Notes: generated by a model from the sequence alone, not told the origin. DNA of 12,348 nucleotides from a virus (IMGVR_UViG_2671180921_000029:1-12348); one strand, 5' to 3'. Positions 1,307 to 12,348 are shown, numbered from the stretch's first letter. Translations and numbers: made by a program.

Positions 1307-3787
1307 TTAAAAATCAGCCTGACTCGGGATCATTTTTTGTATCGTGGCTGTAACGTATTTTGCCTGGTGACGGGCGTCATCCAGTGCATTGTGGCGCACG
1401 CCTTCGAATGGAATAAAGGTTCTGGCATCAAAGTCGATTGTTTTTCCCAGCTCAACGATTGTGCGTACATCGCGATCGTTGTGGTAGCGCCACGGGCAGG
1501 GGATGTCCAGACGTTCGTATGAGGTGCGCAAAATTGCGTTATCGAAAGTTGCACCATTACCCCATACCTGAACGAATTTTTCATCTGAGTATTCGTTGAT
1601 GAACTCCCGAAACCGCGAAAGGGCATCCTTCAGTTTTACCTGGTCTGTTAAAATGGCAGCTCTGGCTTCACTGGACTGCTTCAGCCACCATTCGATGGTT
1701 CCACCGTCAGGAACAGCCCCTGTATTCATTGCGTCAGTCAGACTGATAACGATATAAAATACTGGCCCGATTTCCCCTGTTTGTGGGTCGAAGAAAACCG
1801 CACCAATAACCACGATGGGCGCATTGGTGTTGGTTCCCATTGTTTCAAGGTCGATCATCAGGTGGTACCACACTCTGCTGGTGGATGTGATAACGTGATG
1901 ACCGTTCACCGCAATTAAGGGAGCTGCCGTCTCGCCAGTTTCATTATCGCTGGCGTGGTCCTGAGCGCTGCCAGCATTCTCCTTGTGTGGATGTTCAGCG
2001 CCTTCCATTTCCTCCGGATCATTTTCCTGAACTTCAACCTGATTCTCTTCATCGAATGTTTCCTGGTATGTTGCGTCGCCCATCACGGCGCCACAATCAG
2101 GGCAGTTGCCGCCACCGCTCTGACCGCAGGCGGTGCAGACTTTTTCCGCTTCCTGTTGCGCTACTGGCTCAGGTTGTTTCGTTTCTGGCTCGTTTTGTAA
2201 CGCATTTTGGCTGTTTTGTTCCGCTTTCTGGTCGTTCTGTTCCGTTTCTTGCTGGTTCTGATTCACTGAATCGCGGGTTTCAATCCCCTTCACCCATTTC
2301 GGATCATTCGGGTCGCTAATCCCTGCAACAAATTCACCACGTGATGCGGCGAGCAACTGATTGGCGTCAGGCTGGCTGATATTGGCTGCCTGCATAATTT
2401 TCTTTACTTCGTCAGCGGTAACTTTTACCGGTTCTGGTTGTTCAGAATTTTGTGCGGTATTTGCATTTTGCGGTAAGCCTGTGTATGTGCCATTTTTTCG
2501 GGCAAAATATTCTTCTTTTGTGATTTCAGTAGCCCCTGCAGTCAGCGCCTTATTCAGACCAGAAAGTTTGTTTGCGCGACCGTATTTTTCGCCATCCTTG
2601 TCGGTGAAGAGGAAGTAGAACGGCCCCTCACGCTCTACAGATGGTTCGATTTCCACTTTGCATTCGGTTTTTTCGTTGTCCGGAATTGCCGTTTCCACTG
2701 CATCAGTTTCTGGTACTGGCGATGAGAGAGTATCAGTTGCGCTCTGATTTGTTCCTTCATCTTCAAACACGCCCTTTGTAGTCAGGTATTCAGTAATGTA
2801 TTTGTTCAGTGCCACAGGGTCTTTGTGAATGTCGATCGGACGTTCACGGACAAGGCCAAAAATAGTCTGGCGGTCGTAGCGAAGGGCATCAGGCTGTTTG
2901 CGCATTGATGCCGAGATACGCTTCCAGTCTTCACGGTCGTTGTCGATAACTTCATTTTTTGCCCAGCGATGGATGCTGCCGTCAATGTTTCCGGCATCCA
3001 CATCACCAGGCCAGAGAGCGTAGGCCAGTTCGTCATCCAGTGTTTTCCATGTCTGCTTGTATTCGCGATGAATGGCAGCAATGACCGGGCTGATTTTTCC
3101 TGTTGAATTTTCAGTGTGCTGTTGATTGGCTCTGGCGCGGGCGAGATCAACAACAGACGTGTATTTTCCGGTTTCCTTGCGTTCACCTTCGCGACGTTTT
3201 TTCCAGATGCGCATCTCTGCCTGAATTTCGGGCCATTTGGCACCTGGCTTACATTTATGCTTAACCCACCCGATGGCATGCAGCTTAAGCTCCGGATACA
3301 TGGCGTTAACTTCTGGCATTTTCATCAACGCTTCAACGATATGTCCGTCGAATGTTGCCATGTCTTCCTGCAACAGTTCCTGCGCACTAATCACCATATC
3401 AACGGTGATGTTTTCACATGTGTCGAACTTAACCATGACAGCGTTCTGTACTTCAGGGGCCAGCTTGTCAAAAGTGACGTTCATCGGATCTGATTCAGTC
3501 TCAACCGGGACAAAGGAAGCAGAGTCCTCATCCCAGCGGTTTTCCTGCATATATTCAGCATCCCAGGAATCGAGGGCAGGGCGGGGTATACCGGGTTTAT
3601 CCTCGCAAACAAGAAATTTATAAGCGCAGTCCTGAGCAGCCGGATATTGCTCCAGGAATTGCCAGGTAAATTTGGCACGGGCGCGGCGTTCGTCACCGGC
3701 TTCAATGGCAGTGGCTACAGCAATTGCACCTTCTTCCTTTATTGCCTGTTCGTCCGGAATGGCGGCGCAAATAAAGACTTTACTCAT
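1307..3787 (-). CDS. Large phage exonuclease (826 aa) with C-terminal DEDDh/DnaQ-like 3'-5' exonuclease domain; often annotated as exodeoxyribonuclease VIII-like in related prophages
   Basis: C-terminal ~187 aa (nt ~1310-1870) carries DEDDh motifs: MIDLETMG, WGNGATFDNAIL, HNALDDARHQ. Central acidic/Gln-rich low-complexity linker and a CxxC-(9)-CxxC zinc ribbon (CTACGQSGGGNCPDCG, nt ~2090-2130). Weak SD (GAGGT, 9-nt spacer) before the ATG at 3787. Confidence 0.8.
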   Translation of the reverse strand: MSKVFICAAIPDEQAIKEEGAIAVATAIEAGDERRARAKFTWQFLEQYPAAQDCAYKFLVCEDKPGIPRPALDSWDAEYMQENRWDEDSASFVPVETESDPMNVTFDKLAPEVQNAVMVKFDTCENITVDMVISAQELLQEDMATFDGHIVEALMKMPEVNAMYPELKLHAIGWVKHKCKPGAKWPEIQAEMRIWKKRREGERKETGKYTSVVDLARARANQQHTENSTGKISPVIAAIHREYKQTWKTLDDELAYALWPGDVDAGNIDGSIHRWAKNEVIDNDREDWKRISASMRKQPDALRYDRQTIFGLVRERPIDIHKDPVALNKYITEYLTTKGVFEDEGTNQSATDTLSSPVPETDAVETAIPDNEKTECKVEIEPSVEREGPFYFLFTDKDGEKYGRANKLSGLNKALTAGATEITKEEYFARKNGTYTGLPQNANTAQNSEQPEPVKVTADEVKKIMQAANISQPDANQLLAASRGEFVAGISDPNDPKWVKGIETRDSVNQNQQETEQNDQKAEQNSQNALQNEPETKQPEPVAQQEAEKVCTACGQSGGGNCPDCGAVMGDATYQETFDEENQVEVQENDPEEMEGAEHPHKENAGSAQDHASDNETGETAAPLIAVNGHHVITSTSRVWYHLMIDLETMGTNTNAPIVVIGAVFFDPQTGEIGPVFYIVISLTDAMNTGAVPDGGTIEWWLKQSSEARAAILTDQVKLKDALSRFREFINEYSDEKFVQVWGNGATFDNAILRTSYERLDIPCPWRYHNDRDVRTIVELGKTIDFDARTFIPFEGVRHNALDDARHQAKYVTATIQKMIPSQADF

Positions 3788-3910: not shown

Positions 3911-4132
3911 TCACCATGACTCTGCTTTTACAGGTAAACCATCACGACCAAGGAAGACTTTAATCATGGTTTCCTTAATACAGTGTTGTGTGGAAAAATC
4001 ACGAATATAGAGCCGTTGTTTTTTAATGTTGTTTACCGAAGCAATATATGTTCTTCCTTTATGAATAACATAATCACCGGGAGTCACGCACTGACGAGGA
4101 ATCTCATCAGTTCCGAAGTGATGAGCAATCAT
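3911..4132 (-). CDS. Hypothetical small protein (73 aa); start moved to the internal ATG at 4132
   Basis: ORF-track ORF 3911..4144. The ATG at 4130-4132 is preceded by a strong SD (aaATGGAGGTaattATG), whereas the upstream ATG at 4144 has none. No recognisable motif. Confidence 0.55.
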
Positions 4133-4697
4133 AATTACCTCCATTTTTACAAATGAACTTTGTTGATGCGGTGCCTGGTGCCTCCAGGTGACGTTAACCA
4201 GTTAACAATTAATGCCGGATACAGAGAATCCACCCATAACACTGTTTTTGGTTTTAACTGTTCCGCGTGCGCTTAGCCGCATTCACCGCATCACAAAATT
4301 CACTTTAAAAAGGGCGGCAGAGCAGTCACGGAGTAAAACTGATACCGCCAAACGCCACCAGAAAATTGATAACAGAGGGCGTTGTAGCGGGGTTGTCACT
4401 TAAGCGTATGGTCAACCTGACAACCCGGTGTCCTCAACGGGGAAGGAATAACCCCGCCATACTTACCGCCGCGCCATTTCGCGGAGTGCCACAACCGGAA
4501 GCGCACGGTCGACGAAAATTTAACGACAGGCTATCTATGAACCAGCAACCTCGCCGTGCGCTTTCGCGTTATGCTCTGACTTTTCAGAGAAATATCCTTT
4601 CAGTAAACTGTCAGTGCCGGATGCTCACCCGTGTCCGGCGCACGCACTCCACTTCACCCGTGGAGAACTCCTTAATTACCAACCCTCAGGAGGGTGA

Positions 4698-4931
4698 ATG
4701 TTAAAATCAACTCTTATTGCTAAATGCCTTTATCAAAATCGCATGGTAAGCAGCATTTCAATAGGCGAGTCTGCAGTTAAAAGTATTTTCGAAGAGTACT
4801 TTCCCGGGCATGATTTTAATAAATGGAATACCAAATTACCGCCAGCAGTTTCAACGCGTATTCTGAAAGCAACTGAAAGAGCAAGTACAATTCGCGTTAA
4901 CTATTTCATTAAAGATTTGTGGGATCTTTGA
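4698..4931 (+). CDS. Hypothetical protein (77 aa) on the strand opposite the leftward operon; 3' end overlaps the convergent gene at 4909..5316 by 23 nt
   Basis: Near-consensus SD (cAGGAGGgtgaATG). Sits in an AT-rich segment that differs by eye from the GC-rich flank to its left. No recognisable family. Confidence 0.5.
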   Translation: MLKSTLIAKCLYQNRMVSSISIGESAVKSIFEEYFPGHDFNKWNTKLPPAVSTRILKATERASTIRVNYFIKDLWDL

Positions 4932-5316
4932 TATCCACAGAGCCTAAAGTATGTGCATATGGATGTGCTATTGTGCGCCCTCGCAGATTTGCATCATTTT
5001 CTAAATTCACTGAACGAAACAGGGCATCAACAAGGCTCTGTACAATGCAAAGGCAATCGAAGACTGTCGCCGTTTCTGTTTTGATTGATGAAAGAACATG
5101 GCCATTCACGCAAACAGAAATTACCCGTTTATTAACATCGCTTTCCTGCTTTTGATTATCAGAACCATATAGCCCAGAAAAAGCATTGCGCACATTACGA
5201 ACCATATTATCGATGGTTTCTTTTTTGGTGTATGCCGGGTCAATTTTCACCAGACTATCACCGAGAGTCGTTGCAGCAATTGTCTGGATTTCTTTTGGTA
5301 AATCTTTAAATTCCAT
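4909..5316 (-). CDS. Hypothetical protein (135 aa)
   Basis: ORF with SD-like ACGAGG 7 nt before the ATG. AT-rich codon composition like its neighbours. No recognisable motif. Confidence 0.6.
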   Translation of the reverse strand: MEFKDLPKEIQTIAATTLGDSLVKIDPAYTKKETIDNMVRNVRNAFSGLYGSDNQKQESDVNKRVISVCVNGHVLSSIKTETATVFDCLCIVQSLVDALFRSVNLENDANLRGRTIAHPYAHTLGSVDIKDPTNL

Positions 5317-5338: not shown

Positions 5339-5557
5339 TTAACGTGGGTATGTAATCATTCTGGCAATGCTTAATGCCGCTGCTTTTTCCAGATTGGTGA
5401 TATCCTGCTCCAGAGCGGACAGATTTTCAGCCTGCTTAGCCCTGGCTTCATTGGCCCATTTCAGATCCTGCGCTGCATTAATTTTCTGGCGCATCCACTC
5501 ATAAAGTTCATCATCGGTATAGTCTGGCGCGATGATGACGGGTTCTCGTTTCTGCAT
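5339..5557 (-). CDS. Hypothetical small protein (72 aa), probably helical
   Basis: Strong SD (CAAGGAGccgacATG). Stop lies 22 nt upstream of the next gene's start, suggesting co-transcription with 4909..5316. Confidence 0.6.
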   Translation of the reverse strand: MQKREPVIIAPDYTDDELYEWMRQKINAAQDLKWANEARAKQAENLSALEQDITNLEKAAALSIARMITYPR

Positions 5558-6280: not shown

Positions 6281-6559
6281 TTAGGGAAACTGGCGTCTTG
6301 CGTGGATCACGTTTACTACTTCAACGCTTGATGTTGTTACGCGGTATAGAATTATATAGTTAGGGTGGGCCACAATCTCACGCAAGCCAGGTACTCTGTC
6401 GCTTGGTGGGTATAAATACGGATGTTCGGATAACGGCAGCACACAACCCCTTAATCGCTGCCATAAGCGTTCAGCCGCATCTATGTCGAAACGAGCAATA
6501 TAACTGGTTATATCATCTAGGTCGGTATCTGCGTTTTCAAGCCATAACACGGGTAACAT
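6281..6559 (-). CDS. parE2: ParE/RelE-family type II toxin (92 aa), ParE2-like
   Basis: Start moved to the internal ATG (MLPVLWLENADTDLDDITSYI...), giving the canonical 92-aa size. C-terminus LREIVAHPNYIILYRVTTSSVEVVNVIHARRQFP is typical of ParE/RelE. Start lies 1 nt after the upstream antitoxin stop. The sequence matches my recollection of E. coli O157 ParE2. Confidence 0.85.
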   Translation of the reverse strand: MLPVLWLENADTDLDDITSYIARFDIDAAERLWQRLRGCVLPLSEHPYLYPPSDRVPGLREIVAHPNYIILYRVTTSSVEVVNVIHARRQFP

Positions 6560-6560
6560 T

Positions 6561-6752
6561 TTACTGCTTGCTCCGTTCCTTGCGCATTCTAGCAAAGCGT
6601 TCTGCCATTCTGCGCTCAACTTCGTCATGGGGAATTGCTGGGCGCGGATCTGCAAGGCTCGTTGCTACTTTCGCACGCAGCCATTCGTTGTAACTGTTTT
6701 CTTGTTCAATGGTTTCAAATTCAGAAACCATTGGTGAAAGGGCTCTATTCAT
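6561..6752 (-). CDS. paaA2: PaaA2-type antitoxin (63 aa)
   Basis: Internal start MNRALSPMVSEFETIEQENSYNEWLRAKV... preceded by a strong SD (GGAGGaaacATG). Size and sequence match my recollection of PaaA2. Lies immediately upstream of the ParE toxin on the same strand. Confidence 0.85.
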   Translation of the reverse strand: MNRALSPMVSEFETIEQENSYNEWLRAKVATSLADPRPAIPHDEVERRMAERFARMRKERSKQ

Positions 6753-6772
6753 GTTTCCTCCGGTTTTATAAC

Positions 6773-7144
6773 TTAGGCGCGGCGGCATTTTTGCGCCGCA
6801 ATCCATCTCGCTATGAGATCTTCCATTGATTCTTTTTTCTGCTTTAACTCGCTGATTATCTGGCGTTGCTCATCCTCAGGGAAGGCTGAAAAAATCTGCA
6901 ATAATTCCAGTTGATTAGACGTTAACCCTGCATGTGGTGGAGAAATCTCCGGTTGTTCTGCGTATTCCGCATCCAGATACCCTTCCGGCATCCCGTATGT
7001 TTGCTCTATTCTTCTGGCAGCCTTTTCTCCAAACGAGGCCCTCCCACTCATTAGTTGAGATAGGTAGCTCTTCTCTTTGGGTGGCAGAGTTTTATCTTTA
7101 AACCACTCCTTGAGACGTAAACGGCGAATTTCTTTTTTCTGCAT
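6773..7144 (-). CDS. paaR2: PaaR2-type HTH transcriptional regulator (123 aa from the ATG at 7144), in the cI-repressor position
   Basis: XRE-type HTH-like segment (KSYLSQLMSGRASFGEKAARRIEQ). Divergent from a Cro-like gene and first gene of the paaA2-parE2 operon. Start ambiguous: ATG at 7144 (weak SD) or GTG at 7207, which would place the start inside the promoter/operator repeats. Confidence 0.75.
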   Translation of the reverse strand: MQKKEIRRLRLKEWFKDKTLPPKEKSYLSQLMSGRASFGEKAARRIEQTYGMPEGYLDAEYAEQPEISPPHAGLTSNQLELLQIFSAFPEDEQRQIISELKQKKESMEDLIARWIAAQKCRRA

Positions 7145-7183
7145 GTGGTAATTATCTTTAGTAATCACTAAACAAGCAAATAC

Positions 7184-7241
7184 TTGACTTAATGGTTTAT
7201 TAAACACTAAACTCGCAAGAAAACACTAAACCGAGGAAGGT
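7184..7241 (+). promoter_or_regulatory. PR-like rightward promoter (-35 TTGACT 7184-7189, 18-nt spacer, -10 TAAACT 7208-7213) with CACTAAAC operator-like repeats
   Basis: Hexamers at sigma70-like spacing upstream of the Cro-like gene. CACTAAAC occurs at 7166-7173, 7205-7212 and 7224-7231, overlapping the -10 and leader. SD GAGGAAGG precedes the ATG at 7242. Confidence 0.5.
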
Positions 7242-11980: not shown

Positions 11981-12192
11981 TTTTATATTGGCGAGGTGAC
12001 GGGAGTTAAGTAGAATTGCTGCGGGTGCTTGAGGCTGTCTGCCTCAGGCATGAACACCAAAAGGCAGATAGAGAAAAGCCCCAGTTAACATTACGCGTCC
12101 TGCAAGACGCTTAACATTAATCTGAGGCCATATCTATGCTCTACACACGTAGGTTAGCCTCTTACGTGCCGAAAGGCAAGGAGAAGCAGGCT

Positions 12193-12348
12193 ATGAAGCA
12201 GCAAAAGGCGATGCTAATCGCCCTGATCGTCATCTGTTTAACCGTCATAGTGACGGCACTGGTAACGAGGAAAGACCTCTGCGAGGTACGAATCCGAACC
12301 GGCCAGACGGAGGTCGCTGTCTTCACAGCTTACGAACCTGAGGAGTAA
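12193..12348 (+). CDS. hok: Hok/Gef-family type I toxin (51 aa), HokD/RelF-like; stop codon is the last triplet of the window
   Basis: MKQQKAMLIALIVICLTVIVTALVTRKDLCEVRIRTGQTEVAVFTAYEPEE has the Hok architecture (N-terminal TM helix, then RKxLCE...). SD AAGGAG 9 nt upstream. The ORF track shows an in-frame 19-codon upstream extension from 12136. Confidence 0.85.
   Translation: MKQQKAMLIALIVICLTVIVTALVTRKDLCEVRIRTGQTEVAVFTAYEPEE

Follow-up and report, generated by a model that had tools for sequence, protein, structure and literature searches.

Approximately 550 bp of the 12,348-nt viral sequence IMGVR_UViG_2671180921_000029:1-12348 (the whole of which is referred to here as the window) were singled out in a first-pass annotation, made from the sequence alone, as lacking a credible open reading frame (ORF) while being dense in GC-rich hairpins, raising the question of whether this stretch represents a structured RNA, a cluster of regulatory or termination sites, or a decayed gene. 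With a high degree of confidence, we identify it as the dicF segment of the early-left operon ("dicBF" type) of a lambdoid prophage, located at 4133–4697, with long duplexes and with roles in RNA processing and termination. The first two options both turned out to apply: the segment contains the DicF small RNA together with structured flanks that have covariation support, and an intrinsic terminator, two putative RNase III duplexes, and a putative RNase E site are present; the third option was not borne out. DicF has been known since 1989; the literature on dicF and the dicBF operon of the Qin prophage includes Faubladier 1990, Balasubramanian 2016, and Ragunathan 2023. The identity of DicF, the untranslated region, the terminator, and the processing steps of RNase III and RNase E are all already known, and the locus is real but ordinary.

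Identity and Limits of the Untranslated Segment

An Rfam scan, which had been suggested as a check, identified DicF (RF00039) on the minus strand at 4363–4312, with 76.4 bits (as compared to a gathering score of 48), an E value of 8e-16, and model positions 1–52 of 52 aligned. The match has the 3′ stem-loop and U-run of the family and is embedded downstream of ydfC in an early-left untranslated stretch, in synteny with E. coli K-12, phage Tritos, and a RefSeq genome. In a minus-strand alignment, window positions 4152–4684 are ~97% identical to the ydfC–dicB intergenic region of the K-12 Qin prophage; Tritos, in which DicF is annotated, shows ~97% identity over the same positions, and phage Evi is 99.8% identical over the stretch queried by megablast (query 4100–4750). 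This query was matched in 4722 of 5426 complete E. coli genomes, at a median of two places per genome, and in 60 phage records, including Evi and Tritos. [quoted passage not shown] Neither DicF nor the minus-strand function of the region had been noticed in the first-pass annotation.

The right end originally given for the stretch (4697) stands, but the left end (4145) does not; the kil start codon preceded by a Shine–Dalgarno (SD) sequence is the ATG at 4132 rather than at 4144, in agreement with how RefSeq annotates a locus that is 99.8% identical, and the untranslated interval is 4133–4697. The absence of a credible ORF was confirmed by family searches and by the broken frame in homologues. 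The 112-aa and 63-aa ORFs, which are the two longest and both located on the plus strand, have no Pfam or PHROG family match, and the 112-aa frame is open in ~33 of the 105 distinct homologous sequences, with most others reaching a stop after 28–57 codons; protein coding was ruled out on these grounds.

Operon Context and Comparative Sample

From right to left, the window contains genes encoding a cI-like repressor, ParE/PaaA2, and a 99–118-aa protein, followed by ydfC, orf135, the untranslated segment, kil, and the exonuclease, xis, and int genes (Table 1). Transcription of the segment presumably proceeds right to left, starting upstream of ydfC at a PL-like promoter under repressor control. 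Of the 115 DicF loci that could be assessed, ~107 have dicB after DicF and ~6 have kil; the window is thus a minority recombinant in which DicF precedes Kil instead of DicB, both of which are division inhibitors.

Table 1. Coordinates of the untranslated segment, its structured elements, and the surrounding genes in the window, listed from right to left.
Feature	Position	Strand	Basis and remarks
cI-like repressor	6773–7207		
ParE toxin and PaaA2-type antitoxin	6281–6806	−	PF05016, E 1e-15 (ParE); PF21217, E 2e-19 (PaaA2 type)
Gene of 99–118 aa	between toxin–antitoxin pair and ydfC		no assigned function
ydfC	5339–5557	−	100% identical to K-12 YdfC
orf135	4909–5316	−	
orf77	4698–4931	+	small gene, hypothetical protein in RefSeq; PHROG 10348, E 1e-47; SD AGGAGG at 4687–4692
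Whole untranslated dicF segment, early-left (dicBF-type) operon	4133–4697	−	homology to K-12 Qin; no family-matching ORF
Distal leader	4574–4697	−	hairpins 4574–4589, 4616–4639, and 4647–4665; "type A" form common to K-12
Stem CTCCAC..GTGGAG	4647–4665		
Stem GCCGGA..TCCGGC	4616–4639		
Duplex 1	4490–4573 (5′ arm 4551–4573, 3′ arm 4490–4512)	−	21-bp imperfect long-range helix with variable apical region; repeat I3 and fold
Three-hairpin block	4381–4495	−	folds; hairpins 4469–4484, 4438–4456, and 4390–4426, closed by UUGUGGCA / GCUACAAC
Stem CCGCG..CGCGG	4469–4484		
Stem CGGGG..CCCCG	4438–4456		
Perfect 9-bp inverted repeat GGGTTGTCA / TGACAACCC	4390–4398 / 4418–4426		19 nt between arms; also repeat I5 of the repeat finder
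AU-rich linker CGCCCUCUGUUAUCAA, then DicF start UUUCUGG	4365–4380	−	largely unpaired in folds; identical to K-12
DicF small RNA	4312–4364	−	Rfam and K-12 alignment; taken as equivalent of the K-12 annotated 53-nt form (b1574)
DicF 3′ hairpin and U-run (intrinsic terminator)	4307–4349 (stem 4313–4349, UUUUU 4307–4311)	−	Rfam consensus structure and fold
STnc100-like structured element, 158 nt	4148–4305	−	sub-threshold Rfam match, covariation, fold
Closing duplex of STnc100-like element, 21 bp	4284–4304 / 4152–4173	−	
Internal hairpins of STnc100-like element	4265–4280; 4190–4216 (carries GTTAACCAGTTAAC); 4174–4188	−	
GTTAACCAGTTAAC	4193–4206		
kil, in the place of dicB	3911–4132	−	Rac-type FtsZ/septation inhibitor; PHROG 294 "Kil protein", E 3e-34; RefSeq annotation
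826-aa exonuclease, excisionase, integrase	downstream of kil, in right-to-left order		

Two further observations concern toxin–antitoxin genes. The ParE/PaaA2 pair sits between the cI-like repressor and the presumed early-left promoter, the position at which lambda carries rexAB. At 12023–12198 (plus strand), the Rfam model of the sok antitoxin RNA (RF01794) is matched over its full length (117.8 bits, E = 7e-27), and an ORF that starts at 12136 runs off the end of the window; this is a hok/sok-type toxin–antitoxin locus of the prophage.

For comparative analysis, DicF-pattern anchoring yielded 8 loci in a set of contigs with one genome for each species (Escherichia, Shigella, Salmonella, and MAGs) and, among viral contigs, at least 120 contigs with 105 distinct 563-nt segments. 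Across 104 distinct loci, identity to the window was 82–100% in the proximal leader, 94–100% in DicF (87% in Salmonella), 78–100% in the spacer, and 35–100% in the distal leader. Most of the proximal region gives no covariation test because it is too conserved.

Structured Elements of the Segment

Every stem named in the first-pass annotation is present in the segment (Table 1), and the repeat finder identified two longer imperfect repeats that had been missed (4146–4173 / 4284–4311 and 4496–4508 / 4554–4566). On both strands, the fold of the 553-nt stretch is more stable than that of each of 100 dinucleotide shuffles (minus strand, z = −4.7; plus strand, z = −5.3). By sub-region of the minus strand, fold z scores were −3.5 for duplex 1, −2.2 for the three-hairpin block, −2.6 for DicF, and −2.5 for the downstream element; the distal 124 nt (4574–4697), with a z of −1.1, were not above shuffles and are therefore not exceptional. 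Covariation supported the two long duplexes (neither of which had been listed in the first-pass annotation) and was not convincing in the distal hairpins, and the three-hairpin block was nearly invariant. We infer that the many GC-rich hairpins serve in processing and termination.

DicF in the window differs from K-12 DicF only at position 10 (window 4355, minus strand), which is G instead of A. This variant is rare, being present in 4 of 104 distinct sequences, with A, as in K-12, in the other 100. The 5′ part of DicF, where position 10 lies, has been linked to xylR pairing by published work. The predicted duplex between DicF and the ribosome-binding region of ftsZ (−28 to +26) is the same as for K-12 DicF and has an energy of −37.7 kcal/mol, as compared to −38.5 kcal/mol for K-12 DicF, and is no evidence of function because it is not better than that of shuffled DicF (−33.3 ± 3.9). 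In the DicF terminator, each stem pair is kept in at least 103 of 104 sequences; the role of this hairpin in ending a ydfABC–dicF type transcript is known from the literature (PMC5069750, PMC9438474). The DicF terminator was missed by a consensus terminator scan, presumably because its apical part is larger than the loop of 3–8 nt that the scan allows. Upstream of DicF, the AU-rich linker ends at the predicted RNase E cut that would create the DicF 5′ end.

Further upstream, the 21-bp helix of duplex 1 was assessed in 15 variants, including Salmonella and one DicF-less relative. A total of 95.9% of the cells were paired, as compared to 27–45% in slid controls, and four pairs were changed on both sides, as compared to 0.8 ± 0.8 in shuffles (0 of 500 reached four). 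Covariation thus supports duplex 1; this support is graded as moderate because the compensatory changes come from two divergent sequences only (contig L174 and Salmonella). The three-hairpin block, with a fold energy of −45.9 kcal/mol, would form the 5′ part of the 190-nt DicF precursor. This block is nearly invariant in the 104 distinct DicF loci and absent from the Salmonella DicF locus; covariation in the block and in DicF is not assessable because the sequences are nearly invariant, and the search yielded no homologues of the block with <~85% identity. The stems of the distal leader are kept in 78 type-A sequences, with no convincing covariation among them, and the other (non-type-A) DicF loci have a different sequence at this position.

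The spacer between DicF and kil contains an element that resembles STnc100 (RF02076). The Rfam match (4125–4310, minus strand) covers the full model length with an E value of 1.6e-5, and its score of 34.4 bits lies below the gathering score of 47. A closing helix of the form UGGUG...CACCA surrounds internal hairpins including CCNGGAGGCACCNGG, and the element runs into the kil SD and start codon (4132–4147) with no 3′ terminator hairpin of its own. Full membership in the STnc100 family was rejected, as both the window and the SfV-type loci fall below the gathering score (39.5 bits in an SfV-type relative). Among 15 diverse variants, 96.0% of the cells of the element were paired, as compared to 31–43% in slid controls, and 18 of 40 pairs were changed on both sides, as compared to 8.5 ± 1.9 in shuffles (0 of 500); in the closing duplex, 12 of 20 pairs were compensated. 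These data strongly support that the spacer between DicF and dicB or kil is a genuine structured RNA related to STnc100. Beyond offering a putative RNase III site, its conserved core may, though with low probability, control translation or stability of the kil or dicB message, or read-through of the terminator.

On the minus strand, the kil SD region UAAAAAUGGAGG (4138–4149) shows 83% complementarity to CCGCCCUUUUUA (4306–4317), which makes up the U-run and descending arm of the DicF terminator, a pairing (repeat I4) that extends the closing duplex of the STnc100-like element. It is possible that pairing with the DicF terminator would occlude the kil ribosome-binding site, an effect that would be specific to the DicF–kil recombinant.

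Model for Processing and Termination

In K-12, DicF derives from a polycistronic transcript starting at dicBp (PMC10448788, PMC5069750, PMC9438474). A 190-nt species requires RNase III and accumulates on RNase E inactivation, RNase E is needed for the 53-nt DicF species, and terminated and read-through transcripts both exist (PMC10448788). [quoted passage not shown] Counted from the DicF ends, these product lengths place the 5′ end of the 190-nt species at ~4496–4501, inside the 3′ arm of duplex 1, and the 3′ end of the 72-nt form at ~4293, halfway along the closing duplex's 5′ arm; duplex 1 and the closing duplex are thus the predicted RNase III sites for these two ends. The cleavage sites were placed by product length only (± 5 nt), because we could not bring the cleavage position "813/814" into line with the stated transcript length of 1,146 nt (PMC10448788); the main text of two reports on genome-wide RNase III mapping (PMC6212723 and PMC5371410) gives no dicF site coordinates.

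All processing steps have been shown in K-12 and are transferred to the window based on near-identity; what the window itself provides are the substrates, i.e., two covariation-supported long duplexes at the expected positions and a linker identical to that of K-12. In this model, the early-left transcript would cross the segment, and the untranslated RNA would fold into the two long duplexes bracketing DicF. Cleavage of duplex 1 by RNase III would yield a 190-nt precursor with a 5′ monophosphate, which, as we infer, may favor RNase E, and RNase E would cut the AU-rich linker to release 53-nt DicF. Transcription would either stop at the intrinsic terminator of DicF itself or read on; in read-through RNA, RNase III would cut in the closing duplex, producing the 72-nt form and splitting off the kil message. 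DicF, together with Hfq, would then act in trans to repress ftsZ and metabolic mRNAs. In addition, the dense structure may shield the 565-nt untranslated RNA from Rho.

Alternative Explanations

Three other explanations were weighed against the identification as a dicF segment. Descent of the stretch from a disrupted protein gene, such as dicB, is extremely improbable, even though RefSeq annotates a partial "DicB" pseudogene at the equivalent of window 4159–4242 in a near-identical locus (NZ_CP148401.1 2633735–2633818) and an N-terminally extended K-12 dicB frame matches 4272–4159 at 95% identity in tblastn. This match represents only 38 codons that in K-12 precede the true start of DicB; tblastn with the 62-aa DicB itself gave no match in the window, and the dicB-upstream stretch sits within covariation-supported structure. 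Its middle part is swapped for unrelated sequences of varying length in homologues, frame-breaking indels are seen among these homologues, and the same untranslated interval, of 570 nt, is present in K-12, whose dicB is intact. The translated search ruled out a dicB pseudogene, as the DicB coding sequence is wholly absent and only the in-frame untranslated leader survives. The "incomplete DicB" called at 4159–4242 (minus strand) by the RefSeq/NCBI pipeline is an annotation artefact, because all that is matched there is the in-frame, untranslated extension that precedes the real start of dicB. Control of elongation in cis, in which the leader would modify RNA polymerase (as in HK022 put) or recruit an antiterminator (as in nut) for transcription past the DicF terminator to kil, the exonuclease gene, xis, and int, is improbable as well. 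It would be consistent with the intrinsic DicF terminator preceding the delayed-early genes in an operon that has no recognizable N-like gene, with the presence of both terminated and read-through transcripts in K-12 (PMC10448788), and with the related structured leaders that occupy the same position in other N-less lambdoid phages (e.g., SfV), followed by a terminator-like hairpin and U-run. However, the best match between HK022 22000–33500 and the window leader is 12 nt (blastn-short, E = 0.38), the boxA consensus (GCTCTTWA) is found nowhere in the window, and other Rfam matches below E 1 inside 4133–4697 are limited to the sub-threshold STnc100 match and a chance-level tsr32 match (E = 0.52). 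Moreover, the leader lies >1.5 kb from the presumed promoter, unlike putL, and the known roles of RNase III and RNase E already explain both long duplexes. Two specific candidates were rejected, i.e., an HK022 put-like antiterminator, given that HK022 22000–33500 yielded only chance matches with the window leader and the SfV leader, and a lambda-type nut site, given the lack of boxA in the window and of an N-like family among the scanned operon ORFs. By eye, a conserved sequence of the apical part of duplex 1, UGUCGUUAAAUUU, bears only a loose resemblance to boxA.

A function of the plus strand, which would be compatible with the role of the segment in producing DicF, is somewhat less remote, albeit still unlikely; here, part of the region, especially 4600–4697, would serve as promoter/operator and 5′ leader of orf77, and some of the repeats would be DNA-level sites. 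Because the orf77 start codon abuts the leader, the orf77 promoter should lie within 4600–4697; orf77 starts at 4698 with a strong SD, there is no other room for a promoter, and a promoter-like TTCACC-N15-TAATTA, read by eye, overlaps the hairpin at 4647–4665. A similar arrangement was read in the SfV, Salmonella, and "type B" DicF loci, where an opposite-strand small ORF adjoins a related ACCACC..GTGGT motif with TTCACC or TTAACC, N16, and TATCCT, and the RNA fold of the distal leader does not stand out from shuffles. Against this, a consensus promoter scan of the plus strand found nothing in 4600–4697, the only plus-strand promoter match in the region (4202–4229) is at chance level (7 found, as compared to 5.9 expected), and K-12 keeps the distal leader even though it lacks orf77. 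The identification as a dicF segment is the preferred explanation for 4133–4697.

Right at the 5′ edge of the leader, an opposite-strand small gene starts in the window (orf77), in SfV (contig L252, ~3340–3500, minus strand), and in Salmonella and "type B" DicF loci (contigs L006, 3702–4130, plus strand, and L004, ~511–590). The −35-like TTCACC/TTAACC and the −10-like TA...T overlap a conserved inverted repeat (the hairpin at 4647–4665 or the ACCACC..GTGGT motif), which may be an RNA hairpin, a promoter/operator, or both.

Leaders of N-less Lambdoid Phages

In the "type B" E. coli and Salmonella DicF loci, duplex 1 is preceded by the motif ACCACCnnGCCTGAnGTGGTnAAAAG(n)CAGGC. This motif was also found in at least 120 further viral contigs (L132–L251) and in phage SfV (L252, 3533–3570), mostly without DicF and always with a long duplex and/or an STnc100-like element downstream; because it contains two interleaved complementary pairs, a pseudoknot is possible. 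In the commonest form, represented by SfV, the motif is followed by a short hairpin, the STnc100-like element, and a terminator-like hairpin, all within 600 nt of non-coding sequence that occupies the same place in the operon. In the form represented by L174, duplex 1 runs straight into the STnc100-like core. Relative to these forms, alignments read by eye give the three-hairpin block together with DicF the look of a cassette that entered between UUGUGG and UGAAUGCGG. A speculative reading, to which we assign a low probability, is that early-left operons of N-less lambdoid phages share portable RNA modules, of which the DicF locus is a composite. The ancestral leader would then have consisted of the ACCACC..GCCUGA.GUGGU..CAGGC motif, the long duplex, the STnc100-like element, and sometimes a terminator, and would be seen in its DicF-less state in SfV- and L174-type contigs.

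Two observations were made in these leaders. The terminator-like hairpin of SfV (L252, 3740–3800) begins with GGCGGUACCAGUUUGUAC, resembling GGCGGUAUCAGUUUUAC of DicF; a common origin is a guess, as the Rfam DicF model gives no score there. Contig L186, which has an STnc100-like leader, contains matches to isrK and C4 antisense RNA at 6467–6655 (plus strand), both above their Rfam gathering scores; these matches indicate a P1/P7-like or Gifsy-like immunity module.

Our analysis assigns the hairpins noticed earlier to the minus strand and to known processing steps, documents a DicF–kil recombinant as well as the RefSeq "partial DicB" artefact, and adds covariation evidence that the spacer between DicF and dicB or kil is a structured RNA related to STnc100. 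A modular origin of the leader, if true, would bear on the organization and processing of early transcripts in N-less lambdoid phages.

Comparison with Known Systems

The closest known system is the K-12 Qin prophage, which has the same small RNA, untranslated flanks of ~530 nt that are ~97% identical, ydfC upstream, and an early-left operon under repressor control that is oriented in the same way; the RNase III ends known from the literature coincide with the duplexes predicted in the window. However, K-12 has dicB and ydfD where the window has a Rac-type kil, with the break located ~15 nt before the dicB ATG. The window lacks both ydfA and ydfB of K-12, and contains orf135 (minus strand) and orf77 (plus strand), which K-12 lacks, between ydfC and the leader. 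In addition, the prophage in the window appears intact, being near-identical to phage Evi across the stretch, whereas K-12 Qin is cryptic.

With STnc100, a prophage-associated small RNA of Salmonella and pathogenic E. coli, the element downstream of DicF shares the UGGUGAAU...CACCNGGAGGCACCNGGCACC signature and the closing-helix architecture. STnc100 is a discrete small RNA, whereas the element in the window lacks a terminator of its own, stops at the ribosome-binding site of kil, and is part of an operon; for canonical STnc100, locations downstream of stx2 or in Fels-1 contexts have been reported (PMC12370729; bioRxiv 10.64898/2026.05.13.724894). HK022 put is likewise a structured cis RNA in the early operon of an N-less lambdoid phage, but is ~70 nt long and located just downstream of the promoter, and the element in the window differs from it in size, position, and sequence.

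The sites in T7 early mRNA and the site in the lambda N leader are intercistronic RNase III processing signals of phage early transcripts. As predicted for the duplexes in the window, they are long imperfect duplexes between early cistrons, cut to separate functional RNAs; in the window, however, the excised product would be a trans-acting, Hfq-dependent small RNA, and the second duplex surrounds a conserved core of 110 nt with multiple hairpins.
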